Shown here: piece after piece, positions 2,955 to 15,690 of the stretch
Layout: the number at the start of each line of letters is the position of its first letter
Numbering within the stretch: the stretch's first letter is position 1
From: Bdellovibrionota bacterium FG-1
GTDB taxonomy: Bacteria > Bdellovibrionota > UBA1018
Length of the DNA stretch: 15,810 nt
Reading direction: 5' to 3'
Assembly: GCA_051382295.1 (NCBI GenBank)
Contig: JBBCAW010000044.1
Coordinates: 1-15,810 of the forward strand
Made by a program: the position numbers and the translations under genes
The notes under the pieces: model-generated
Told to the model about the DNA's origin: nothing
What the model saw: only the letters and a program-made list of their open reading frames with translations
Databases searched by the model: none

Positions 2955-3052
2955 GGTTAATTTTTAACACTCCGGCCACCTAAAGGCAATTGGACTTCCC
3001 GTTCCAAATCCTTTCGGTGGCTCGGATTTTAGGATACTCACCTGAAAGACTC

Positions 3053-4957
3053 ATGATCGAGCCTATAGCCCTTTCCAAACGGTCTTACTTTCACCGCACC
3101 CTGGCCTCTTCTTGGGAAGAAATCTGGGAGGCCGGGCCTTATTTTGACCGTCTCTCCACCCTCCTCGAAGACGCCACCGACTACGCCATTTTGGTGGGTT
3201 GGCAAATTGACTCGCGGCTGACCATTGCTATCCCTGGAAAGTCCGGACAGACCGAAACGCTCAAAGAAAAGATCATTCGGCTCTGCGAAATGAAGCCCCA
3301 TTTTCAATTTTATATTTTGATGTGGGACCACGCCTATTTCTATGTACTCGAGCGAGAGCACTGGCAGGGGCGTATTTGGGAGGATATTCACCCTAGAGTC
3401 CATTTTATCTTTGATAACCGCCATCCTTTTGGCGGGTCTCACCACGAAAAAATCTGCCTGATTGATGGCAAAGTGGCTCTTTGCGGTGGAGTTGATCTTT
3501 GCGATGACCGCTGGGACAGCCCTGATCACCTCTACCAAGACCCCCGCCGCTCTCTGGACCACAAGGCCGAAAAATATGGCCCCTACCATGACTTGAGCGT
3601 CCAGGTGACCGGTCCCGTTTGCGCAGACCTTCAATCTCATGTGGCCACGCGGTGGCAAGCTCTCTCGAATATTCCGTTTCCGCAGCCACCTATAACACCG
3701 CCGTTCGCGAAAGAGTCGCAAAACACCGTCTATGTGAGTCGCACCCAATCCAACATCGATCCCTACGGCACGCACCCGATATTGGTGCGCGAAATCGAAT
3801 TTCTTTTCAGAGACTTGATCCGAAGCGCACAATATCGCGTTATTTTGGAAGGTCAGTACTTTTGGTCAAAAGGAATCTGCGACCTCCTTTGCGCAAAAAT
3901 TCAGGCCATGCGAAGCAAGCCTTTTGAGCTTTACCTGATTCTTTCAGACCTCGCCAAAGTCAAGACTCTCACTTGCCTCATGGATCCCTATCAACGACGT
4001 TTACTTGACCGGCTACAGACCGCCGCACGAAATACAAGTGTCCGACTCATCATCGGACATCCTCAAGTTCTATCCCCCGATCCGGTCACGCAGCCCCCTC
4101 GACCGATCTATATCCATTCCAAACTAATCATCATTGATGATCGTTTTTTATCGATCGGAAGCGCTAATTTTGCCTCCCGTGCCCTTCGAATTGACACTGA
4201 AATCCACCTCACGCTCGAGGCCAAAACCGACGCTCAACGGCACCATGTCCAAAACGTGGCGTCACAAGTCCTCGACCATTGGCATCGCCCCCCGATTCGC
4301 CTGCAGCCGATCACTCCTCTCAGAAATTTACGAAGAAACCGCTTGCCGTTTGATTTTTTTTTCGACCCCTCCTTCCCCTGGCCCACGCGGTTTAAACTCC
4401 GCTTCCGCAAACTCGCCCGCCACCACCACTGGATAATCCCCTTAAGTCTTGTCCTGCTCGCTCTCACAGGCTCGATGTTAGCCGTTTTTTTAAGCTTTCC
4501 GGGCCGAGGAAGTCCAGACTGGATGGTCATACTTTTTGGAATCGCTCTTTCGACTTTTTGGCTAATTCCCCTCCCCTTCGTTCCCACCGCACTGCTCACG
4601 ACCCTTTGGTTAGGCCCTGACACGGGGATACGCCTCACCCTTTTTTCAATTTGGATTGGTTCAATTCTCGGCTTTTCCGTCGCCAGGATTTTTCCGACCA
4701 CCGTTGCTCGCTATTGCTCTGAAAAGGCCCCAAAATGGTTGGAAAATCGATTCAAGGAACGAACCTTTTCAGCCCTTCTTTGGGTCTTGGCCGATCCGCG
4801 CATTGAACTCCGCTTCAAAATCGCTTATCAAGGACTCTATTGTATCCCCCTCCCCTGGTTCCTCATGGCCATGGGCGTGCTGGCTCCGTCCGTCCTGTTT
4901 TTGATTTGTGATTGGGGATTTCAACTTTACTCCTATTTTTTGGGCCTCACTCCATGA
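3053..4957 (+). CDS. Phospholipase D family protein (two HKD motifs) with a C-terminal DedA/VTT (SNARE-associated)-like membrane domain
   Basis: HKD1 SHHEKICLIDGKVALCGGVDL and HKD2 YIHSKLIIIDDRFLSIGSAN; RWDSPDH and PYHDL segments typical of bacterial PLD1/2-like enzymes. The last ~175 aa hold several hydrophobic helices. ATG 3053 is preferred over the upstream TTG 2990. Confidence 0.88.
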   Translation: MIEPIALSKRSYFHRTLASSWEEIWEAGPYFDRLSTLLEDATDYAILVGWQIDSRLTIAIPGKSGQTETLKEKIIRLCEMKPHFQFYILMWDHAYFYVLEREHWQGRIWEDIHPRVHFIFDNRHPFGGSHHEKICLIDGKVALCGGVDLCDDRWDSPDHLYQDPRRSLDHKAEKYGPYHDLSVQVTGPVCADLQSHVATRWQALSNIPFPQPPITPPFAKESQNTVYVSRTQSNIDPYGTHPILVREIEFLFRDLIRSAQYRVILEGQYFWSKGICDLLCAKIQAMRSKPFELYLILSDLAKVKTLTCLMDPYQRRLLDRLQTAARNTSVRLIIGHPQVLSPDPVTQPPRPIYIHSKLIIIDDRFLSIGSANFASRALRIDTEIHLTLEAKTDAQRHHVQNVASQVLDHWHRPPIRLQPITPLRNLRRNRLPFDFFFDPSFPWPTRFKLRFRKLARHHHWIIPLSLVLLALTGSMLAVFLSFPGRGSPDWMVILFGIALSTFWLIPLPFVPTALLTTLWLGPDTGIRLTLFSIWIGSILGFSVARIFPTTVARYCSEKAPKWLENRFKERTFSALLWVLADPRIELRFKIAYQGLYCIPLPWFLMAMGVLAPSVLFLICDWGFQLYSYFLGLTP

Positions 4958-5724
4958 CGTCACATCCTCATCAACTCCGTATTTTGTCCTACAATATTCA
5001 TAAAGGATTCAATGTGGGGAACCGACGGTTTATCTTAGAAAAAATCCGCCACGCCATTCGCACCCTTCATCCTGATCTGGTTTTGCTCCAAGAAGTCCTG
5101 GGCGAACATCGTGGCCACCAACGTCGTCTACCCGAATGGCCCAAGCTTCCCCAATTTTCTTATCTCGCTCACGATCTCTGGCCCCATTTTGCCTACGGCA
5201 AAAATGCCATTTATGGAGCAGGTCATCACGGCAATGCTATTTTGAGCAAATATCCCATTGATTTCTTTGAAAACATCGACATCTCGACCAACCCCTATGA
5301 AAAACGCGGTCTGCTCCATGCGCGAGTCGCGATCCCGGGCCGTCATCGCCCCGTTCATGTTATTTGCGTCCATCTCGGACTTTTTGAGGCCGAGCGCCAA
5401 ACTCAAATCAAACGAATTTGCCGCCAAATTGACGCTCACGTTCCTCATCAGGATCCACTGATCCTCGGTGGAGATTTCAATGATTGGCTTCTCAAAGCCA
5501 CCGGCCCTTTGCAAAATGCCCTCGAAGTCAAAGAAGCATTTTTAGAAATGCACGGTGCTCATGCACGAACTTTTCCAAGTTGGTTGCCTTCGCTCAGGCT
5601 TGATCGTCTTTATTTTCGCAAGATGAAGTTAAAAAGCTGTCGGGTCCTAACACAAAAGCCATGGAACACACTTTCAGACCATGTGCCCCTTTATGCGGAG
5701 TTGAGCATCCAAGCGGGGTCTTAA
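4954..5724 (+). CDS. ybhP: Endonuclease/exonuclease/phosphatase (EEP) family protein, YbhP-like
   Basis: SYNIHKGF, LLQEV, AYGKNAIY..GHHGNAILSKYPI, CVHLGL, GGDFNDW, RTFPS..P.LRLDRLY and LSDHVPL closely match E. coli YbhP as recalled. ATG 4954 overlaps the PLD stop (ATGA, 4954-4957). Confidence 0.9.
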   Translation: MTSHPHQLRILSYNIHKGFNVGNRRFILEKIRHAIRTLHPDLVLLQEVLGEHRGHQRRLPEWPKLPQFSYLAHDLWPHFAYGKNAIYGAGHHGNAILSKYPIDFFENIDISTNPYEKRGLLHARVAIPGRHRPVHVICVHLGLFEAERQTQIKRICRQIDAHVPHQDPLILGGDFNDWLLKATGPLQNALEVKEAFLEMHGAHARTFPSWLPSLRLDRLYFRKMKLKSCRVLTQKPWNTLSDHVPLYAELSIQAGS

Positions 5725-6158: not shown

Positions 6159-7709
6159 ATGCTTGTTAAAAAATTTCGTCAAGAAAAAGATTCGTTGGGT
6201 TGGGTTCATGTGCCTAAAAATGCCTTCTATGGCGCGCAGACTTGTCGCGCGCTCACCCATTTCAAAATTTCAAAAAACACTGCTGATGCATCTTTGATCC
6301 GCGCTCTGCTAAGCATCAAAGGTGCCGCTGCCTTGACCAATCAAACGTGCGGAACGCTGAGCGCCGAACATTCACAATTAATCCAAAAAGCGGTCGACGA
6401 GCTTCTTATGATGCCGATTGCAAAATGGCCAGAAATTTTTCCGATTGATTCATTTCAAGCAGGTGCGGGAACGAGCCAAAATATGAACGTCAACGAAGTG
6501 GTCGCCAATTGGGCCAATCACCTCGCAGGAAAACCCCTCGGAAGTTACTCCCCCATTCATCCCAACAACCACGTCAATCAGTCTCAATCGACCAACGATG
6601 TGTACCCCAGTGCAATGCGTCTTGCCCTCTTAGAAGTATCTACTGAACTCGTGAAAGAGATCAGACTCCTTTCGTTAATCTTTGAAAAAAAGGCTGAAAT
6701 ATGGGCAGAAATCCCTAAAGCCGCGCGCACCCACCTTCAAGACGCAGTGCCTATAACTCTGGGACAAGAGTTCGGCGCCTATGGTGCAATGCTCCTGCGC
6801 TGTACTCACTGGATCGAAAAAGCTCGCGAGGAAATTTCAGAACTCGGGATTGGAGGCAGTGCAGCAGGCACGGGACTCAACGTGCCCAGTGGATTTACTT
6901 CAATCATCATGACCGAACTTTCGCGCTCCTATAAAATAAATCTACGCTCAGCGTTAAATCTCTGCGAATCAATGCAATCCCAAGCTCCCCTTTCGTTTTA
7001 CTCCTCCATGCTTCGAATCACCGCTCTTGAGCTCACCCGAGTCTGCAACGATTTGCGCTTGCTTGCCTCAGGGCCGGCCAATGGGCTAGCCGAAATAACG
7101 CTGCCCGCCGTTCAACCTGGCAGCAGCATTATGCCTGGCAAAGTCAACCCCTCCATTTTGGAAGCCATGAATCAAATTCTTTTTGCGGTTTTAGGACATG
7201 ATCAAACAGTGAGTTTTGCCATGCAAGCCGGGCAACTTGAACTCAATGTGATGATGCCCGTTATGGCTTATGCACTTTTGGATGCGACCCAAATCCTTAC
7301 GAAGGGGATTGGAATGATGCGCACCTTTTGCATTGAAGGCATTGAACCCCAGACTGAGCGACTCCGACGATATTCAGAAAACACACCCCAACTTGCCACG
7401 GCGCTATCCCCGCTCCTCGGATACGAACAAACAGCCATGCTCGTACAACAGGCACAAGCGCAGGGCCTCACCCTTCTTGACTTACTGAGAAAGGAAGTCG
7501 CAAAAAACAACTACTCCGTCGAAGTTTTAGCCGCCGCTGAAGCTGCCTTGCTGCCCCCAATGGGCAAATCCAAAGCCTCAAAATCAAGATCTTCTTCTAC
7601 CCCTTCGACGGAACCGTCCGAGCCTTCGCCCCCTTCGCCGGTTTCATCCTCAGGAGTAGCTCCTACAGAGCAGCCAGGCAAACCGGAGACATCCCCGATC
7701 CGAATATGA
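6159..7709 (+). CDS. aspA: Aspartate ammonia-lyase (fumarase/aspartase superfamily) with a Ser/Pro-rich C-terminal extension
   Basis: EKDSLG, YGAQT, QAGAGTSQNMNVNEV, SQSTNDVYPSA, RTHLQDAVP, GSSIMPGKVNP, GQLELNVMMP. GAGTS, QSTND and DAVP favour aspartase over FumC (GSGTQ, QSSND, DATP). ATG 6159 follows an AGGTG Shine-Dalgarno. Confidence 0.85.
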   Translation: MLVKKFRQEKDSLGWVHVPKNAFYGAQTCRALTHFKISKNTADASLIRALLSIKGAAALTNQTCGTLSAEHSQLIQKAVDELLMMPIAKWPEIFPIDSFQAGAGTSQNMNVNEVVANWANHLAGKPLGSYSPIHPNNHVNQSQSTNDVYPSAMRLALLEVSTELVKEIRLLSLIFEKKAEIWAEIPKAARTHLQDAVPITLGQEFGAYGAMLLRCTHWIEKAREEISELGIGGSAAGTGLNVPSGFTSIIMTELSRSYKINLRSALNLCESMQSQAPLSFYSSMLRITALELTRVCNDLRLLASGPANGLAEITLPAVQPGSSIMPGKVNPSILEAMNQILFAVLGHDQTVSFAMQAGQLELNVMMPVMAYALLDATQILTKGIGMMRTFCIEGIEPQTERLRRYSENTPQLATALSPLLGYEQTAMLVQQAQAQGLTLLDLLRKEVAKNNYSVEVLAAAEAALLPPMGKSKASKSRSSSTPSTEPSEPSPPSPVSSSGVAPTEQPGKPETSPIRI

Positions 7710-8719
7710 AAATGATTTTTGTGCGCTGGCATATGCCTAATAAAGCGCCCAAAGCGTCCCCAGTCCGCATCACCACGGGCGGTTTTGGCTAGCTTGCGAA
7801 TCAGCTTTTTATCCAAGAAAACCACCTTCACACAAGCATACGGATTTTTAAAAAGCTGTTTAACCAACCACCAATTGATCTTTCCATCAAAATCATTATG
7901 AAATGCTTGCGGCGAAAGACGTCCGGGATGAACGGTCAAAAACCCAATATCTGCATCCTGTCCTGTTGTATGAGAGGCATGACCTTTGGGGCCTGATCTT
8001 CCTGCGAGACAGCCACCCCGAGGCGCGGATATATCGCCGACCACCAAACGCACGCCGTCATGGTGATCGTCTGCATACTGTTTGGCCACCTGTCGCCCCA
8101 ACCACTCCATCAATCCTGCCATCGGATCAGTCCCATAATTGGTGCAACGCTCGGGCGAGCGAAGTAAAATACGATTAGTCGCCGTCGGTAAAACCGGCCG
8201 ACCCCAGGCCAAAAAGCCGTTATTGACCGTGCAAAAAGCTTGCTCGCCCTTACGCCCCAGTTCTTGATGAATCACACCCAAAATATCCGGAATCTTGCCC
8301 GCCTCGAGCGCTTGCGTGTAAGCCAGCTGCTCATCCGTCATTTCATCGCAAAAATCAGCCTTAAAACGCTCGCGCGCACAAACCTTCGGCGGCAAACGTC
8401 GCCGTCCCCGACGGCCCTTAGCTCGCATGACCCTACTGCAACAACGATGACCATTATAGCCAAACTCAGGATTCCACTCCGCGCAAAACTCCAGCCGCGG
8501 CGCGGACGAACCCGGAATCGGCAATCCTAAGCCATCCCGAAGATCTCCCCAATCGTCCGACTCCGGACCGCAGGCGCCAAAATCCGGCACGACTGAGTAG
8601 AATCCCTGAGCCAAGCAGGAGCTGGAAACCAAAAGCAAAAGGGGGGTCACTAAGGGGAAAAAATGGGTTTTAAACAGAGACACTGGGTCGATCATAAAGA
8701 CAAAAAGCGCCCGAGTCAA
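7511..8719 (-). CDS. Penicillin-insensitive murein endopeptidase (MepA-like LAS zinc peptidase), probably exported, Cys-rich
   Basis: VGDISAPRGG, GHASHTTGQDADI (H-x6-D) and HKNHFHIRI (HxH); hydrophobic N-terminal stretch FFPLVTPLLLLVSSSCLA. The start is TTG 8719 or ATG 8695. Confidence 0.85.
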   Translation of the reverse strand: MTRALFVFMIDPVSLFKTHFFPLVTPLLLLVSSSCLAQGFYSVVPDFGACGPESDDWGDLRDGLGLPIPGSSAPRLEFCAEWNPEFGYNGHRCCSRVMRAKGRRGRRRLPPKVCARERFKADFCDEMTDEQLAYTQALEAGKIPDILGVIHQELGRKGEQAFCTVNNGFLAWGRPVLPTATNRILLRSPERCTNYGTDPMAGLMEWLGRQVAKQYADDHHDGVRLVVGDISAPRGGCLAGRSGPKGHASHTTGQDADIGFLTVHPGRLSPQAFHNDFDGKINWWLVKQLFKNPYACVKVVFLDKKLIRKLAKTARGDADWGRFGRFIRHMPAHKNHFHIRIGDVSGLPGCSVGATPEDETGEGGEGSDGSVEGVEEDLDFEALDLPIGGSKAASAAAKTSTE

Positions 8720-9027
8720 ATTTCGGGTCCATTTTGAAGTTCTCTCAAGATCCGCTCTGCCGGGGTTTCAAGTTTTTTCTCCCGATTGCACTCACGACAA
8801 GCGGCCACGATATTGCCTTCGGTGCTCGTCCCCCCCCGCGCTAATGGAACGACGTGGTCCATGGTCAACTGGCGAGATTCAACACGCTGACCGCAATAAT
8901 AGCAAAGTCCTTGGTTCAGCTGGGTGAGCCACCATTGAGTTTTGCGCAATTTCTGGGCTTTTTCTCGTTCCTTTTTCATCCGTTTTGGATCGGTATGAGC
9001 CGGATCAAGAAAGTAATAATCTTCCAT
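8716..9027 (-). CDS. Small HNH endonuclease
   Basis: CYYCG...LTMDHVVPLARGGTSTEGNIVAACRECNREK: zinc-binding CxxC pairs plus the H-N-N beta-beta-alpha-Me motif. Confidence 0.92.
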   Translation of the reverse strand: MEDYYFLDPAHTDPKRMKKEREKAQKLRKTQWWLTQLNQGLCYYCGQRVESRQLTMDHVVPLARGGTSTEGNIVAACRECNREKKLETPAERILRELQNGPEI

Positions 9028-9106
9028 ATCTTGATCAATTTGGTATCATAAAAAAACACGCTTTGTCTAGCGAAATTGCCGCGTTGCGTGGTAGACCCCC
9101 TATCTT

Positions 9107-10753
9107 ATGATTCATCTCACGAATATCACCAAGCAATACGGCACCCGCGTCCTCTTCAAAGAAGGCAGCTTTCAGGTGCGTCCGGGCGACAAAATAGGAC
9201 TCGTGGGCCCCAACGGTGCTGGCAAAACAACGATTTTTCGAATCATGACCCACGAAGAAGGCATCGACTCGGGAGACGTCAATATCGCGGACCGACTGGT
9301 GATCGGCTACTTTTCACAATCCATGGGCGAAATGGCGGGGTGTTCGGCGCTGGAGGAAGTCAAAGCCGGCGCGGGGAGAATTTCTAAGCTCGCTCATGAA
9401 ATCGAGACCATGCAAAAGCGCCTCGAAGACTCCGCGACCCATCCCCTTTCGGATGACGATATGGAGGCCTTGCTAGAGCGCTACGGTGAAGCCCAAACTG
9501 AGTTTGAACAGCGCGGTGGTTACGATCTCGAGGCGCGCGCTCAGGCTATTCTCACCGGGCTGGGCATTGGCCCCGATCAATACGATCGCCCCGTCGAGAG
9601 CTTCAGCGGCGGCTGGAAAATGCGAATTGCCCTGGCAAAAATTCTACTGCTCAACCCCGATGCCTTGCTGATGGACGAACCCACCAATCATCTCGATCTC
9701 GAATCGATTGTCTGGCTCGAAGAATGGCTTCGTAACTTCAAAGGTTCGCTCGTCATGACTAGCCATGATCGAGAATTCATGAACCGCATCTGTACTCGTA
9801 TTGTCGAAATCGCCAACAAGCAAATCACGAACTACACAGGGAACTACGACTTTTACTTGCGAGAACGACAAATCCGCAAAGATCAACTCGTTGCCGCCGC
9901 TCGAAAACAGGACGATATGCTTGCCAAGGAAGAGGAATTCATCGCCCGCTTTGCCGCCCGAGCCTCCCATGCCGCCCAAGTGCAATCTCGCGTCAAAAAA
10001 CTCGAAAAAATCGACCGAATTGAAATCCCCTCCGAAGACAAAGTCATGAAATTTGACTTTCCAAAACCCCCTCGCAGCGGAAATGACGTGGTCAAACTGG
10101 TCAATCTAGCCAAAGAGTACAAACTCGAAAATGGAAAAACCAAGTCTGTGTTTAGTGGCGCCAACGGCGTCATTCGGCGGCTCGACAAAATTGCGGTCGT
10201 CGGGGTGAATGGTGCCGGAAAATCAACGCTTCTCAAAATCATCACGGATCAGACCGAGGCGAGCCAGGGTGAATGTGCGATTGGCGCAGGCGTAAAGGTC
10301 GGATATTTCAGCCAACATGCCCTAGAAGTCCTGAACTCGAGCAAAACACTCTTCGAGGAAATCCATGATCGAATTCCCGAGGCCACCATTGGCATGGTTC
10401 ACAATCTATTGGGCGCATTCTTATTCAGCGGTGACGAGGTCGAAAAGAAAATCAATGTTCTTTCCGGCGGAGAAAAAAGTCGCGTCGTCCTCGCGACCAT
10501 CATGGCCTCCCCGGTTAATTTTTTGGTCCTCGACGAGCCGACCAATCATCTGGACATCAAATCTCGCGAAATTCTCATGGAAGGAATCCAGAATTTTGAC
10601 GGCACGGTCGCCTTTGTGAGCCATGATCGACACTTTTTACGTTCCATTGCCAACCGGGTTTTTGAGATCGATCATGGCGAAATGCGCATTTTCGAAGGCA
10701 ATTACGATTATTACACCACCAAAACGACGCGCTCGCTCATTAATGGTGTTTAA
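9107..10753 (+). CDS. ABC-F family ATP-binding protein (ribosome-associated, no transmembrane domain)
   Basis: Two NBDs: GPNGAGKT / FSGGWKMR / LLMDEPTNHLD and GVNGAGKS / LSGGEKSR / LVLDEPTNHLD; SHDR and YTGNYDFY motifs; helical arm and inter-domain linker. Confidence 0.95.
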   Translation: MIHLTNITKQYGTRVLFKEGSFQVRPGDKIGLVGPNGAGKTTIFRIMTHEEGIDSGDVNIADRLVIGYFSQSMGEMAGCSALEEVKAGAGRISKLAHEIETMQKRLEDSATHPLSDDDMEALLERYGEAQTEFEQRGGYDLEARAQAILTGLGIGPDQYDRPVESFSGGWKMRIALAKILLLNPDALLMDEPTNHLDLESIVWLEEWLRNFKGSLVMTSHDREFMNRICTRIVEIANKQITNYTGNYDFYLRERQIRKDQLVAAARKQDDMLAKEEEFIARFAARASHAAQVQSRVKKLEKIDRIEIPSEDKVMKFDFPKPPRSGNDVVKLVNLAKEYKLENGKTKSVFSGANGVIRRLDKIAVVGVNGAGKSTLLKIITDQTEASQGECAIGAGVKVGYFSQHALEVLNSSKTLFEEIHDRIPEATIGMVHNLLGAFLFSGDEVEKKINVLSGGEKSRVVLATIMASPVNFLVLDEPTNHLDIKSREILMEGIQNFDGTVAFVSHDRHFLRSIANRVFEIDHGEMRIFEGNYDYYTTKTTRSLINGV

Positions 10754-11462
10754 GCTGAAATGAGTAAATATTGTAAGGGCGTCGAATCACAAATTGCGCA
10801 ACGTTCCGCACTGGTGTTCCTCCGGGCGTACTGCCCCGCTCCAGCCCGTGGTGCGCATGTCCATGAAAAGCACCGTCACAGCCAATGGCATCAATGGCCT
10901 CGGCCAGAAGATAACTGCCCAAGAAAGGATAGATTTCACGCCGCTCGCCCATCACGGTCGCTTCGATCGGTGAAAAATGAAGCAAGGCGAAGCGAAAGTC
11001 CGTTCTAAGCGCTTCCAACCCCGTCCGCAAAGACTCGGCCTGCAACCGGGCATGTTGGGCAAACGCCTTCATTTCAGGTTCACCGAATTCAGAAATACAA
11101 GCGCCAGAAAATCCGCCACCAAAACCTTTGATGCCCATGACACCCACACTGTGTCCGCGAATCTGAAACTCCGCCGAAGCCCCCTCCAAAACAATAATCC
11201 CCGCCTCACGCAAAAGAGCGGCAATTTCATTCTCCAAATTAGAATGAAAATCATGATTTCCCAGCACTGAAAGAACCGGAATCGAAAGCCCTTTTAAATC
11301 CTCAACCAATGCGGCCGCCTCATCAAGCGCGCCGTGTTGAGTTAAATCGCCGGCCACCAAAAATAGATCAGCCTGCCCCTCCAGGGCTTCAAATTGCGAA
11401 CGTAACCGATTTTTTGACCGACTATCATAATGAAGATCGCCCACGGCGGCGATACGGATCAT
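10740..11462 (-). CDS. Calcineurin-like metallophosphoesterase
   Basis: All five metal-binding motifs: GDLH, AGDLT, LGNHD, LLHFSP, HGHAHHG. ATG overlaps the upstream stop (ATGA 11462-11459) with a GAGGAGG Shine-Dalgarno. Confidence 0.93.
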   Translation of the reverse strand: MIRIAAVGDLHYDSRSKNRLRSQFEALEGQADLFLVAGDLTQHGALDEAAALVEDLKGLSIPVLSVLGNHDFHSNLENEIAALLREAGIIVLEGASAEFQIRGHSVGVMGIKGFGGGFSGACISEFGEPEMKAFAQHARLQAESLRTGLEALRTDFRFALLHFSPIEATVMGERREIYPFLGSYLLAEAIDAIGCDGAFHGHAHHGLERGSTPGGTPVRNVAQFVIRRPYNIYSFQLKHH

Positions 11463-12415
11463 TCGACCTCCTCGGCCGCGGCAGGTTCTTGAAAATGGAG
11501 GACTCTCACCTGATTTTCAATCGCGGCATCCGGAAGGCACTCCCGCACCACTTCCATCACCGCGTCGCGCCGCTCTGGGGCGGACACCTCACCCCGTAAG
11601 AGAATTTTATTTCCGGAATGCTCAATCTGAATATTGAGTTCATTAGTTCTTGGGTCTTGAGCCAAAGATTCATGCAGGTGGGAGATCGCGTATTCTTGCA
11701 CCCTCGATAGCGGCAGGGGAGAACGGGACGCCATTTTTTCCGCGCCTAAATTCGCGCCAGGTCGTGGGACGGGCGAAGCATCCCCAAACACGCTTCGATA
11801 AAGTTCGTGAATCACGTGATTCGGCACCCAAATATCATTGGATTGCGCATACAACAGAAGGCTCAACACCCGACGAGGGGCGCGTTTTGCCCGATGGATC
11901 AAGTAGTTCCAATCGAGACTCGCATGTGATAAAAGCGCGATCGCATCATGCCAATGATTAGGACAAAGCTCACTATGAGCCGCGACCTTAATGATCAGTA
12001 AATCTTCAGGAGCGACCATCCGGATTTTTAGACCGTGATACTGGACGGAAATCGAGCGTCCATACATTTCTGAATCCAAATAGATTTCACCCTTGGACTT
12101 AAAGATGACATCCACCAAAATATCTTCTTTAAAGGCCTTATAAAGCCAGGTGGGATCGGTCTTTTCGATCAAAAATCCGTGTTTATCGAGAGCCCTTAAA
12201 ACGATTTCGGCATCCTCAGGCCGGACAAATAAATCAATATCGTGAGTGGAGCGGGGGCGCCCGAGCCCCCCTGAAGCGATGCCGCCAATAAAAACGTAAT
12301 GCACCTCTGTACCCAAAAGAGCCGAAACCACCTCGTTCAGCACTGCATTGAAACGACCCGCAAGTTCTGGATTTTCAGTCGTACTAAAGGGGGTCGGTAG
12401 CACTTGCATCGGCAT
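11459..12415 (-). CDS. Pol-beta-superfamily nucleotidyltransferase fused to a C-terminal BON domain
   Basis: VFIGGIASGGLGRPRSTHDIDLFV (GGxA...RxTxDxD), LVDVIF, APEDLLIIK, HWHD, LDWNYL. A Pro/Gly linker precedes a BON-like HLHESLAQDPRTNELNIQIEHSGNKILLRGEVSAPERRDAVMEVV...IENQVRV (about 11695-11501). Start uncertain: ATG 12415, ATG 12409 or TTG 12427. Confidence 0.85.
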   Translation of the reverse strand: MPMQVLPTPFSTTENPELAGRFNAVLNEVVSALLGTEVHYVFIGGIASGGLGRPRSTHDIDLFVRPEDAEIVLRALDKHGFLIEKTDPTWLYKAFKEDILVDVIFKSKGEIYLDSEMYGRSISVQYHGLKIRMVAPEDLLIIKVAAHSELCPNHWHDAIALLSHASLDWNYLIHRAKRAPRRVLSLLLYAQSNDIWVPNHVIHELYRSVFGDASPVPRPGANLGAEKMASRSPLPLSRVQEYAISHLHESLAQDPRTNELNIQIEHSGNKILLRGEVSAPERRDAVMEVVRECLPDAAIENQVRVLHFQEPAAAEEVE

Positions 12416-12479
12416 TGAACCTATCAAAACTCGGGCCAGGCAATAAAAACTGAATCAAACGAGCGGCCCAGCAGCGTCA

Positions 12480-12495
12480 AGGAATGTCCCTTGCA
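12480..12495 (+). promoter_or_regulatory. Candidate sigma-54 (-24/-12) promoter for the KGG gene
   Basis: AGGAATG-TCCC-TTGCA: GG-N10-GC spacing with a consensus TTGCA, about 65 bp upstream of ATG 12559. The -24 element is only a partial match. Confidence 0.3.
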
Positions 12496-12558
12496 CACTT
12501 GATCGGTAATCGAGTGCATCTGTTTTCTCGCATCAAAACACTGTTCCAAGGAGGGACC

Positions 12559-12945
12559 ATGCCGAATATCAACCCCCATCCAGAGACCCACCTCACTGAG
12601 CCGACTCATTCTACCGACACCGCTCAGCAGAAGACCCAACCCGGTGCCCCACCGCACGATCAAGCCGTTGAAAATGCAACCCCATCCCACGAAGACCAAG
12701 CCAGGCATCCCCGGGAAAGCGGCGCCCGAGGAACGGCCGCCATGGATCCCCAAACCCGACAAGAAGTCGCCCGAAAAGGCGGAATTGCGGTTTCCCAAAA
12801 CAAACAGCACATGGCTGAAATTGGACGAAAAGGGGGCCAAAGCGTGTCAAAGAACCGTGAACATATGGCGCGGATCGGCCGAAAAGGCGGCGCCGCATCT
12901 CGGGGATCCCGAGGAAGCGGAAGCGCCGCAGGAGGAACCGCCTAA
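12559..12945 (+). CDS. KGG-repeat general stress protein (YciG/GsiB/Con-10-like hydrophilin)
   Basis: RGTAAMDPQTRQEVARKGG, HMAEIGRKGG and HMARIGRKGG repeats; hydrophilic low-complexity N-terminus; strong AAGGAGG (12548-12554) before ATG 12559. Confidence 0.92.
   Translation: MPNINPHPETHLTEPTHSTDTAQQKTQPGAPPHDQAVENATPSHEDQARHPRESGARGTAAMDPQTRQEVARKGGIAVSQNKQHMAEIGRKGGQSVSKNREHMARIGRKGGAASRGSRGSGSAAGGTA
12727..12891 (+). repeat. Three degenerate intragenic repeats with a 54-nt (18-aa) period, encoding RKGG units
   Basis: RKGG codons begin at 12772, 12826 and 12880. Confidence 0.85.
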
Positions 12946-12946
12946 G

Positions 12947-13744
12947 CTAAAAATCCATCTGCTGTCGGGGTTTTTTGATTTCTTGTAAACGCTCAAGAAA
13001 TGGGTCGGGCTGGTCTTTAGCCAGGCGGTCGCCCGAGTGGAGGCGTCCCGCTACGGCCCTATCCAAAAACTCATTGAGCCGTAATATTTGAGTGCAATCA
13101 ATGACCATCTGCTTTGCAAAACGAGGTGAAGAAAACTCCCGCACAGAATAAGAGCGCCAGACAAAGAAGGCCTGTAATTTGATCCAATCGATGTGGGGAT
13201 GAGATGCATCAAAACCCCGAGGCACTCGCGTGGAAACTCTTTCGTCCGAAAATCCCTCGGGAAAACAGTGCGAAAACGCCTTGGAACGAAAGAGCGCCTC
13301 AAACGCCGAGGCATCCACGGCAATAGCCTCCCGTATCGCACGAACTTGGCGAGAAGAAGGCATATACAAACCGCCAGCGACCAAGACACTATCCTTGCCC
13401 TCCGAGGGCTCAAGGACAAAGACCAAGCTAGGGTTGCGCTCAAAGCGGGATTCTGCCGGACGCGAGGCCGAATAAACCAGCCAGTTTTTATAAAGCGCGC
13501 CGCCCTTTTCAACCCGGTTGGAAGGTCGTTTTAATCTCCCGATTCCCTTTTGAGGGAAATGATAACCTGGCGCCTTTGAGCTCAATGCCGCCTTCAACGT
13601 GCTTGCTAAATGTTGCAACGGTTGGAGCAGTGTTTCTTCATATTCTTCACGGTTTTTGTCTAGCCACGTCGGATTTTTTTGCCTGGAGGCACGAGTCAAA
13701 AATTCGAGGGTCTTTTTGGAAAAACAGGGCACCGACGTCTTCAT
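12947..13744 (-). CDS. DUF2461 (TIGR02453)-like protein
   Basis: FSKKTLEFL...NPTWLDKNREEYE, VAGGLYMP...VRAIREAI and RVPRGFDASHPHIDWIK resemble DUF2461 motifs as recalled. Confidence 0.8.
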   Translation of the reverse strand: MKTSVPCFSKKTLEFLTRASRQKNPTWLDKNREEYEETLLQPLQHLASTLKAALSSKAPGYHFPQKGIGRLKRPSNRVEKGGALYKNWLVYSASRPAESRFERNPSLVFVLEPSEGKDSVLVAGGLYMPSSRQVRAIREAIAVDASAFEALFRSKAFSHCFPEGFSDERVSTRVPRGFDASHPHIDWIKLQAFFVWRSYSVREFSSPRFAKQMVIDCTQILRLNEFLDRAVAGRLHSGDRLAKDQPDPFLERLQEIKKPRQQMDF

Positions 13745-13746
13745 GG
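13697..13746. repeat. Direct repeat copy 1 (live 5' end of the DUF2461 gene)
   Basis: 44/50 identical to 15641-15690, including an exact 29-mer TTTTTGGAAAAACAGGGCACCGACGTCTT (13713-13741 = 15657-15685). Confidence 0.95.
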
Positions 13747-13953: not shown

Positions 13954-14436
13954 ATGAAGTCAAGCGTTTATATTGAGTCTTCGGTAGTTAGTTATTTTGC
14001 CAACGAATTGAGCTCCAATTTGAAAATAGCGGCCGAGCAGCGAATTACACACGAGTGGTGGAAAAAGGTTCTCCCGAAAGTTAATGCGTATGTTTCTGAT
14101 TATGTGCTTGAGGAGATTAAGAAGGGAAATCCGATCGAAGCTGCTGCGCAAATAAAAGCAGCCCAAATATTACCGCTCCTTCCAGAAAAAATGGAGACGT
14201 TTGATCTGGCCCGCGAATATATTAAGAAGCTTTCCTTACCAAAGGATGGGGAAATCGACGCATTTCACCTTGCCGTTGCCGCTGTTCACGAGGTTGATTT
14301 TTTATTAACTTGGAATTGCAAGCATATCGCAAACGCTTTCAAGTACCCGTTGATTCGGAAGATTAACAGTAAAATGGGATATCGATCTCCAACGATTTGT
14401 ACCCCACGCGAACTTATGGAGGTGCCACATGACTAA
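13954..14436 (+). CDS. PIN-domain (VapC-like) ribonuclease toxin
   Basis: VYIESSVVSY, YVSDYVLEEI, IDAFHLAVAAVHEVDFLLTWNCKHIAN, PTICTPRELM: a recognisable PIN subfamily with the TWNxKH motif. Confidence 0.88.
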   Translation: MKSSVYIESSVVSYFANELSSNLKIAAEQRITHEWWKKVLPKVNAYVSDYVLEEIKKGNPIEAAAQIKAAQILPLLPEKMETFDLAREYIKKLSLPKDGEIDAFHLAVAAVHEVDFLLTWNCKHIANAFKYPLIRKINSKMGYRSPTICTPRELMEVPHD

Positions 14437-14623
14437 GAAAAAAACAGACTCTCAGGGTGCCATTATCGACGAACTTAGAAAGGCCCGTGCTGAATTATGG
14501 CGTGAATACCATGGGGATATGAAAAAACTTCATGTCGATGCGAGAAAGACGGCAAAAACACTTGGAATGCGATATGCGGCGCCGCCAAAACGGCGCAAAA
14601 AAGATAACGGCGAGGCTGCCTGA
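14429..14623 (+). CDS. Small protein, putative antitoxin partner of the PIN toxin
   Basis: 64 aa; overlaps the PIN stop by 8 nt; GGAGGT Shine-Dalgarno. IIDELRKARAELWREYHGDM resembles small helical proteins I recall downstream of this PIN subfamily. Confidence 0.7.
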   Translation: MTKKKTDSQGAIIDELRKARAELWREYHGDMKKLHVDARKTAKTLGMRYAAPPKRRKKDNGEAA

Positions 14624-14811: not shown

Positions 14812-15189
14812 TTAAACATTTTCTCCCCCTGATTCTTTGTAAGCGCTGTCATGATCGGGATGAAGGGAGATGAATTGCATGTACACACCCTCGCGCGTTA
14901 CCCGTGCCCGGAACTTATCGGACACTCGAATGGAAGCTATAACGTCGCCAGATGCTGTTTTCTGGTTTAAAACTTCCCAATGTAATCCGCGTTTTTGTGT
15001 CATGGATGATGTTGCTAAAACCTGAGCCCAGGTCATTTTATTAATTTTTTCAATGCAGGCCCTGACTTTAAGCAGCTGAGCCAGGATTAATTCGGCGAGT
15101 TCATTTTGAACGCGGGGATATTCCAGATCCGCATGGACTATTTCGTGATGTGTTGAGCTGGTACCAGCTTCACTTTTTTTCTTTAACAC
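14812..15189 (-). CDS. Putative RelE/ParE-fold toxin
   Basis: Two N-terminal helices, then GLHWEVL...IASIRVSDKFRARV...MQFISLHPDHDSAY, matching the RelE/YoeB/HigB-like pattern (SxRh...R, C-terminal H..Y). Overlaps the upstream small gene by 20 nt; GTG start uncertain. Confidence 0.65.
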   Translation of the reverse strand: MLKKKSEAGTSSTHHEIVHADLEYPRVQNELAELILAQLLKVRACIEKINKMTWAQVLATSSMTQKRGLHWEVLNQKTASGDVIASIRVSDKFRARVTREGVYMQFISLHPDHDSAYKESGGENV

Positions 15190-15463
15190 GGGCCTTTTTT
15201 TCTAGGCGATCAAACAGGGCAGCTGTGTTTGTTGGTTTGGGTGGGTTTTTGGAATTCCACGCATTGAATTCTCGAAATTTTTCCATAGCATCGGGCGAAA
15301 AAAATGTAGCCTGGTGTTCCGGCACAAAAAAACCAGCAACGATTCTAAGCTCGGTATCACTTACTTCCTCGACACGAATTTCACGGCCAGCCCATTTTTT
15401 CCCAATGCTGATTTGTCCGTTGGGAGCTACGCGGAGCAATTTCGCTGCATTGGGTGGAGCCAT
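15170..15463 (-). CDS. Putative AbrB/MazE-like antitoxin
   Basis: LRVAPNGQISIGKKW matches the AbrB-type 'v..nGQItIP' swapped-hairpin start; VPEHQATFFSP resembles AbrB antitoxin C-terminal segments. AAGAGG Shine-Dalgarno; first gene of a two-gene operon. Confidence 0.7.
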   Translation of the reverse strand: MAPPNAAKLLRVAPNGQISIGKKWAGREIRVEEVSDTELRIVAGFFVPEHQATFFSPDAMEKFREFNAWNSKNPPKPTNTAALFDRLEKKARVKEKK

Positions 15464-15640: not shown

Positions 15641-15690
15641 CAGAAATTCCAACGTTTTTTTGGAAAAACAGGGCACCGACGTCTTTATGG
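15641..15690 (-). pseudogene. Direct repeat copy 2: dead 16-codon 5' fragment of a DUF2461 allele
   Basis: Reads ATA-KTSVPCFSKKTLEFL, the same peptide as the live gene, with ATG changed to ATA and five synonymous substitutions; similarity ends abruptly on both sides. Confidence 0.85.

Follow-up and report, generated by a model that had tools for sequence, protein, structure and literature searches.

What is the role of a nucleotidyltransferase (NT) that is fused to a BON domain and encoded directly upstream of a calcineurin-like metallophosphoesterase (MPE)? This question is raised by a stretch of 15,810 nucleotides from Bdellovibrionota bacterium FG-1 (contig JBBCAW010000044.1 of assembly GCA_051382295.1), the whole of which is hereafter referred to as the window. 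A preliminary description proposed that the two enzymes, encoded divergently from a KGG-repeat hydrophilin gene, add and remove a nucleoside monophosphate (NMP) as a reversible stress switch. We found that the NT and MPE genes are a conserved core, which is kept and moved together across several bacterial phyla. The pair is a real, widespread and stress-regulated module, the chemistry of which we infer. A general-stress-induced NMP writer/eraser, in which the NT would add the NMP and the MPE would remove it, is the reading that we tentatively prefer, with somewhat less than even confidence. The features concerned are as follows (aa, amino acids; pLDDT, predicted local distance difference test score).

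11459..12409, minus strand: gene for the NT-BON fusion (316 aa; ATG at 12409, alternative starts at 12415 and 12427)
11786..12370, minus strand: MenT1-fold NT domain (aa ~14-208; G42, D57, D59, W88, K91, D100, K141, D155)
11711..11785, minus strand: flexible linker from NT to BON, of widely differing length among the homologues (pLDDT <50 at aa 219-230)
11462..11710, minus strand: single BON domain (OsmY fold match, Z 9.9; family-specific Tyr240, codon 11690-11692)
11459..11473, minus strand: GAGGAGG ribosome-binding site (11473-11467) and ATGA stop/start overlap (11462-11459)
10740..11462, minus strand: calcineurin-like MPE gene (240 aa; family-specific KGFGGGF, FGE and GE..E motifs)
12424..12438, minus strand: sigma-54-like -24/-12 site 5' of the NT gene (TGGC-N7-TTGA)
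12480..12494, plus strand: sigma-54-like site 5' of the KGG gene (GG-N8-TTGC)
12559..12945, plus strand: KGG-repeat hydrophilin gene (128 aa; PF10685, E 4.8e-06), a co-regulated, lineage-local neighbour and not part of the core

The elements named in the preliminary description were all located. The NT motifs GGIA..RSTHDID, LVDVIF and EDLLIIK occur in the open reading frame at 11459-12409 (minus strand), the MPE carries all five metal motifs (D9xH11, GD39, GNH68-70, H162 and GH202xH204), and the translational coupling of the two genes through the GAGGAGG and ATGA elements was confirmed. The divergent region shared with the KGG gene, given earlier as about 140 bp, measures 149 bp (12410-12558). 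Each of the three genes is present in one copy in the source genome. The NT-BON/MPE arrangement is far beyond chance, since the BON or NT-BON gene shows the same -4 overlap with the MPE gene in 91 of the 117 BON-bearing loci. In NCBIfam, the NT, MPE and KGG proteins reached no family above its cut-off, the ESM Atlas returned only generic names, and a scan of the window for sigma-70 promoters and terminators gave counts close to those expected by chance (2 against 1.6 and 5 against 4.0).

The conservation of the pair was examined in several genome samples. When 251 genomes of the window's own phylum were searched with the NT profile, 28 matched: the MPE lies directly downstream of the NT at the 16 top-scoring places, of which the window is one, and head-to-head with it at the next 3. 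No MPE was found within the 1.5-kb flanks of the 10 weakest, DUF2204-like matches (0/10), or within 5 kb of 9 further weak NT matches fetched as a control (0/9). The best 80 of 545 confirmed MPE places are rich in Streptomyces and Micromonospora and also include Nocardia, Mycolicibacter, Chloroflexi and Polyangiales; an NT lies upstream at 76/80, a BON at 77/80 and both at 75 (15 fused and 60 separate), and the next most frequent neighbour is found at 23/80. Two further phylum samples contained the MPE in 6/151 and 11/401 genomes, with an NT adjoining it at 17/17 new loci, and a third (Chloroflexota) contained it in 20/201 genomes, with an NT at 14/19 new loci; these prevalences are lower bounds, because the searches scored only some of each genome's candidates. 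Finally, 297 actinobacterial genomes (four unpublished genomes left out) were searched with both profiles, the NT cut-off of E 1e-30 being chosen at a gap in the scores. The MPE is present in 47 of them: 45 hold both genes (non-adjacent in 3), 2 the MPE only, 8 the NT only, and 242 neither. Because kin are not independent, none of these counts should be read as a probability. The neighbourhood on which the preliminary description had made its proposal depend is conserved.

The pair is also kept through rearrangement. Four gene orders were seen (NT followed by MPE, MPE followed by NT, divergent and convergent), and fusions exist: two clean NT-MPE fusions (P0269 and P0398) and one probable MPE-NT fusion (P0390). 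Two other candidate fusions, P0392 and P0393, and P0256 (sugar-nucleoside triphosphate transferase, NT and BON) probably arose through frameshifts or read-through and were left out of the count. In the trees of 149 pairs, 70/146 splits are shared by both, and 46 of the 68 well-supported NT splits reappear in the MPE tree. Clade II, which comprises 23 BON-less loci from several phylum samples, is a single split in both trees, and this fits joint transfer. The pair matched 128 plasmid records, 112 of which are Sinorhizobium or Rhizobium replicons. Some other contexts of the NT were also recorded. A PF00483 sugar-phosphate nucleotidyltransferase-like gene adjoins it in loci L170, L178, L182, L185 and L197, the order in L170 being BON-MPE-PF00483-NT. 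The NT stands apart from the BON-MPE of the same genome in L171, where topoisomerase IB and a LigD primase-polymerase are its neighbours, and in L217, where an alcohol dehydrogenase-like gene adjoins it. A divergent second NT paralogue without an MPE occurs in L189, L191, L193, L194, L196 and L198, mostly 3' of thioredoxin-like genes; in L191 and L198 it lies 5' of a CCA/poly(A) polymerase-HD gene.

How is the pair regulated? By profile, the Sinorhizobium meliloti 1021 orthologues lie on pSymB at 93598-94176 (NT) and 92774-93436 (MPE), and these positions correspond, in the supplement of PMC3616915, to SMb20082 (93442-94344) and SMb20081 (92735-93445). The same supplement maps an RpoE2 promoter, GGAACTT-13-GTGTTG, at TSS0199, and Data Set S1 of PMC6180224 lists log2 fold changes of 4.0 (16-fold) for SMb20082 and 2.2 (4.6-fold) for SMb20081 upon RpoE2 overexpression; as the two papers share array data, the induction counts once. 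In the Tn-seq (transposon sequencing) supplement of PMC5929573, no match was found in the 12 of 18 files searched. The pattern GGAAC-N16-18-GTT occurs 5' of the NT at 7/11 loci of the Pseudomonadota sample (0.12 in shuffles, 4 in antisense). In actinomycetes, the GGGTA motif, which is the -10 box in promoters of the SigB type (PMC8346170), is found ≤300 nt 5' of the NT at 52/61 loci (16/21 genera or metagenome-assembled-genome groups), the controls being 8.0 for shuffles, 19 for antisense and 127/594 for neighbouring genes. The intergenic region of the window contains back-to-back sites that resemble the sigma-54 consensus, and rpoN is present in the genome. On the NT side, where the -12 box is TTGA, this pattern, which was chosen post hoc, occurs in 16/26 rows (14/24 distinct) vs 0.71 in shuffles; the KGG-side site is found in 12/12 KGG-bearing rows (11 distinct), the shuffle control covering the NT side only. 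Genes for a sigma-70-family sigma factor, STAS, SpoIIE, catalase, topoisomerase IB and ChaB recur near the pair, and all of these are typical general-stress genes. Membership of the general-stress regulon holds for the S. meliloti orthologues; it is suggested at the motif level for actinomycetes and by a sigma-54-like motif for the window. The stress link drawn earlier has been strengthened, both by the rise of SMb20082 and SMb20081 with RpoE2 from a mapped promoter and by the SigB-type boxes. In addition, GGGTA and TACCC lie a few bases apart between the divergent genes for the NT and an EEP-family phosphoesterase in L183, L184, L186, L187 and L188, and a similar two-way layout is seen with DUF2795 in L045, L052, L056 and L061.

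Such promoters bear on another explanation, namely, that the NT and the MPE are independent members of a general-stress regulon, clustered only via a common promoter. Stress genes do cluster here and share two-way promoters (KGG, DUF2795, EEP), and orphan NT and orphan MPE genes exist. Nevertheless, the adjacency persists in each of four orientations, in fusions and under three types of promoter, and the convergent NT-MPE pairs, which cannot share a promoter, weaken the explanation. The single split of clade II in both trees and the frequency of only 23/80 for the next neighbour also speak against it, and we regard it as the least probable of the readings weighed here.

Which other parts belong to the module? 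The preliminary description had put NT, BON, phosphoesterase and KGG together. Its NT/MPE functional pair is conserved, while KGG proved to be lineage-local and BON is missing in clades II and III. KGG was set aside as a component: it adjoins the NT at no more than 11 distinct loci, which all belong to the window's lineage, and it is not beside the NT in 13 other Bdellovibrionota-type loci, 3 of which hold <900 bases upstream. The Pfam match of the BON domain in the window (E 1e-4, 22.9 bits) is under the 27-bit cut-off, and the fusion of a BON domain to the NT, as described earlier, is nevertheless backed by the fold: OsmY is matched, the root-mean-square deviation (rmsd) being 2.9 over 75 aligned residues, in the order alpha-beta-beta-alpha-beta. 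BON is present in 117/149 pairs. In its place, clade II has a conserved C-terminal extension (CRG..SR..Y/F..D...WG), and clade III, which is small and convergent, has neither. Where the trio is split or reordered (L062, L063, L170, L195, L197, L210, L211 and L219), BON remains with the MPE, and no NT-BON without an MPE was seen among the loci examined, bar one unrelated weak BON match. BON is an accessory that follows the MPE, not the NT. Tyr240 is kept in 120/125 BON rows (96%), which include a few duplicate loci and one unrelated BON, the other four exceptions being in NT loci; OsmY has Ala there. From the helix register, Tyr240 is probably exposed on the surface. The C-terminal Glu of BON (94%) was set aside as a conserved feature, because it overlaps the GAGGAG ribosome-binding site.

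The NT itself points to a known fold. Its Pfam matches are DUF2204 (E 1.3e-10), NTP_transf_5 (9.6e-09), DUF6036 (2.3e-05) and, weakly, Aminoglyc_resit (E 3.4e-4); Pfam AbiEii (PF08843) has no match in the window NT at E 0.01, and several homologues pass its cut-off (best E 4.9e-09). In the AlphaFold2 model of NT-BON (mean pLDDT 90.5; predicted template-modelling score 0.66), the closest fold to the NT is MenT1 (8an4; Z 18.1, rmsd 2.2, 170 aligned), as Foldseek agrees, followed by TM1012 (Z 13.3), ANT(2'') (12.4) and LnuA (10.7). The MenT-like character proposed earlier was thus recovered as the top fold in the structure search. A 35-row NT family profile matches MenT1 at E 1.6e-09, and a sequence search of the PDB with the single NT gave weak matches only (MenT1, E 0.57). 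The family has a bilobed NT fold with a G-G/S and DxD metal-binding motif, and G42, D57, D59, W88 and D100 are invariant in 149/149 paired homologues. The K141 column has K in 121/149 in an alignment that is partly register-shifted, and an Asp is found in the region equivalent to D152 of MenT1. The MenT1 residues T39, D41, D43, K137 and D152, which were tested in PMC11375011, correspond to T55, D57, D59, K141 and D155 of the window NT. Net charge was tried as an RNA-binding test and was uninformative (NT median -6; the MenT1 stretch is also acidic by eye).

The resemblance to MenT1 brings in a MenAT-like toxin-antitoxin explanation, in which the NT would be silenced by auto-phosphorylation of Thr55 and re-armed by the MPE, or in which BON or the MPE would be a sequestering antitoxin. 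T55 matches T39, the auto-phosphorylation site of MenT1 (PMC11375011), and NT(-BON) and MPE are translationally coupled. The T55 column, however, has Thr in only 88 of the 149 paired homologues (Q 27, D 14, E 13), with no Thr in the actinomycete clade; divergent and convergent gene orders occur; and the pair is mostly single-copy. Moreover, 0 of 50,697 phage records matched, viral contigs gave one weak partial match, and PADLOC gave no match for the NT and a weak partial one for the MPE (PDC-S10, aa 29-99, E 3e-07). Among the 90 neighbour clusters scanned, no MenA/AbiEi-type family was found, the recurring neighbours being BON and the MPE. The pair is not a canonical MenAT toxin-antitoxin system, and we consider this explanation in its modified forms very unlikely.

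The MPE matches Pfam Metallophos (E 2.1e-15) and has a four-layer fold (AlphaFold2 pLDDT 96.1). D9, H11, D39, H70, H162, H202 and H204 are kept in 149/149 paired homologues and N69 in 148/149, and two acidic residues, E128 and E173, are invariant. A PDB sequence search with the single MPE gave no match. Its closest folds, aq_1956, MPPED2, TT1561 and PptH, are tied at Z 19.1-19.5.

Both active sites are intact, and the two genes stay and travel together and are co-regulated. In the writer/eraser mechanism, the NT and the MPE would be made in coupled amounts under a general-stress sigma factor (sigma-54-like in the window's lineage). The NT would then transfer an NMP from a nucleoside triphosphate (NTP) to a hydroxyl acceptor, giving a phosphodiester, and once the stress is over, the MPE would hydrolyse it, probably in a complex with the NT and docked or regulated via BON where present. 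On the chemical side, the counterparts of the MenT1 residues D41, D43, K137 and D152 in the NT speak for this mechanism, as does the fold tie of the MPE with two phosphodiesterases, MPPED2 and PptH. PptT/PptH offers a precedent for an MPE that acts as the eraser beside its own writer. The predicted NT-BON/MPE complex scored 0.42 vs 0.00 for the best control, with contact agreement of ≥73% and partner pLDDT of ≥91; in the benchmark, the mark was reached by 116/157 solved and 2/215 mismatched pairs, and at ≤0.60 by 18/157 and both mismatches. The model lends weak support to a physical complex.

Several points weigh against this mechanism. The activities of the NT and the MPE are predictions from sequence and structure, and the gene coupling is equally compatible with a sequential pathway. 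In 4 of the 5 genomes checked because their MPE lacks a neighbouring NT (one of the 4 being a complete Nocardia genome), no NT was found, so that the MPE can have its own use. The four-way tie means that the MPE fold names no substrate. The MPE is conserved far above the NT (cross-phylum identity, 42-58% vs about 24-52%), a pattern more in keeping with a small substrate that stays the same than with a protein target that diverges. Conversely, the 8 NT-only actinobacterial genomes have an NT without an MPE; in 6 of them the adjacent gene encodes an EEP-family phosphoesterase, which hints that the NT needs some phosphoesterase and fits a repair process.

In such a heal-then-extend process, damaged ends of RNA (or DNA) would first be freed of a 3' phosphate or 2',3'-cyclic phosphate by the MPE, after which the NT would put nucleotides back. 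The closest fold to the NT is that of a tRNA 3'-end transferase, the EEP and calcineurin-like phosphoesterase families both include end-healing enzymes, the surroundings repeatedly include genes for topoisomerase IB, LigD domains and baeRF2, and in L191 and L198 the divergent NT paralogue has the CCA/poly(A) polymerase-HD gene as its neighbour. However, 5 of the 6 EEP cases are close kin with a common two-way GGGTA/TACCC promoter, and the NT-EEP adjacency may therefore be co-regulation only. The nearby repair genes are the usual residents of general-stress clusters. The MPE is net acidic in 97/97 rows, and BON is left unexplained. We judge end repair to be unlikely.

We judge a role in small-molecule chemistry to be equally improbable. 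Here, the NT would nucleotidylate a metabolite or make a signal nucleotide as part of a pathway that protects against stress, and the product or its precursor would be the substrate of the MPE. ANT(2'') and LnuA, which follow MenT1 and TM1012 among the folds, act on small molecules; the MPE is unusually conserved, including E128 and E173, and its fold is tied with those of cyclic-nucleotide phosphodiesterases (MPPED2, Rv0805); and sugar-nucleotide and glycosyltransferase genes are near a few loci. Yet MenT1 is almost 5 Z units ahead of the next NT folds, no metabolic gene is conserved past single lineages (NTP_transferase, 5 loci; GT9, 6 loci), and there is no effector or receptor gene of the kind found in cyclic-oligonucleotide-based anti-phage signalling systems (CBASS).

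The NMP writer/eraser therefore remains our preference, and its possible acceptors can be ranked. The MenT1 fold gives a slight preference to the 3' end of an RNA (tRNA), the hydroxyl of a protein residue such as BON Tyr240 comes second, and a small molecule comes last and seems improbable. A more specific proposal is that domestication turned a MenT1-like toxin fold into a chromosomal general-stress switch that is reversible and has a dedicated eraser, under SigB-, EcfG- or sigma-54-type control by phylum: the NT would tail tRNA 3' ends so as to pause translation and the MPE would trim them back, or the nucleotidylated residue would be the Tyr of a PII-like cytoplasmic BON carrier. This elaboration is conceivable but doubtful.

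Both folds and the writer/eraser logic are already known; the combination of NT and MPE, the way it is regulated and the Tyr of BON seem not to have been described before. A full-text literature search (subscription papers and bioRxiv supplements being outside its scope) yielded no functional paper on the pair, no paper joining a nucleotidyltransferase, a BON domain and a metallophosphoesterase, or a BON domain and AMPylation, none joining a general-stress regulon with both enzyme names, and nothing on the NT-MPE pair in the literature on MenT1 with a phosphoesterase. In the searched main texts, the SMb20082 and SMb20081 tags occur in one gene list only. The architecture of NT-BON is the same as 'one BON and one DUF2204', an 80-protein cluster tabulated with no function given in a survey of BON proteins (PMC7806268, Table 1), the main text of which does not contain the word 'phosphoesterase'. 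For RpoE2, most genes of the general-stress regulon are stated to be still without a function (PMC6180224). In the case of MenT3, repair has been attributed to housekeeping enzymes such as PcnA (PMC11541572); if the writer/eraser reading is true, the MPE would provide a MenT-fold enzyme with a dedicated eraser. The system might likewise represent a new signal based on protein nucleotidylation and give a first role to a cytoplasmic BON domain with a conserved Tyr. The pair is common, has two intact active sites that look opposed, and is directly testable in S. meliloti.

The rest of the window holds other genes. A phospholipase D gene and then an EEP-family gene lie at 2990-5724 (plus strand); in S. 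meliloti (L134), too, a phospholipase/UPF0104/EEP cluster is found at 6-7 kb from the pair, and in L030 an EEP of 61% identity lies ~5 kb away. The region at 7511-10753 contains genes for a MepA-like peptidase M74, a small HNH protein and an ABC ATPase, the 3' end of the last being convergent with the MPE gene end with a 14-bp overlap. A PIN-domain gene with a small overlapping open reading frame (13954-14623, plus strand) and two short overlapping open reading frames without a Pfam match (14812-15463, minus strand) are possible toxin-antitoxin pairs. Shadow open reading frames at ~13710-13745 and ~15650-15690 share the translation FLEKQGTDVFM, which suggests a direct repeat of ~35 bp on both sides of the PIN-gene region.

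How does the pair compare with known systems? In PptT/PptH (Rv2794c/Rv2795c), PptH is a metallophosphoesterase that removes the phosphodiester-linked group installed by the neighbouring PptT (PMC8557913). PptH matches the MPE in fold (Z 19.1, rmsd 3.6, 225 aligned), in a tie with three others. In contrast, PptT is a phosphopantetheinyl transferase, whereas the NT has a pol-beta fold; the MPE is 17% identical to PptH, and no carrier-protein genes are associated with the NT-MPE loci. ANT(2'')-Ia, LnuA and TM1012 are related to the NT in fold (Z 10.7-13.3), but they are a weaker structural match than MenT1, no resistance-gene context was seen around the NT, and we know of no phosphoesterase partner for any of the three. 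In GlnD/PII and MNT/HEPN, a pol-beta-fold NT nucleotidylates a Tyr of a small partner protein, and the BON domain here has a Tyr conserved at 96%. The NT belongs to a different clade, however, the eraser of GlnD is an HD domain, BON is absent in clades II and III, and the modification of the BON Tyr is hypothetical here. MenT1 (Rv0078A of MenAT1; DUF1814/AbiEii superfamily) shares with the NT the fold, the profile match, counterparts of D41, D43, K137 and D152 and, partly, of R37 and T39. The NT is only ~20% identical to it, has an invariant W88-x-x-K91, and, by our reading of the alignment, differs at the R146 and D149 positions in clade I. Unlike the toxin of MenAT1, the NT is accompanied by a phosphoesterase, with or without BON, in place of a MenA-type antitoxin, and its control is of the general-stress sigma type.

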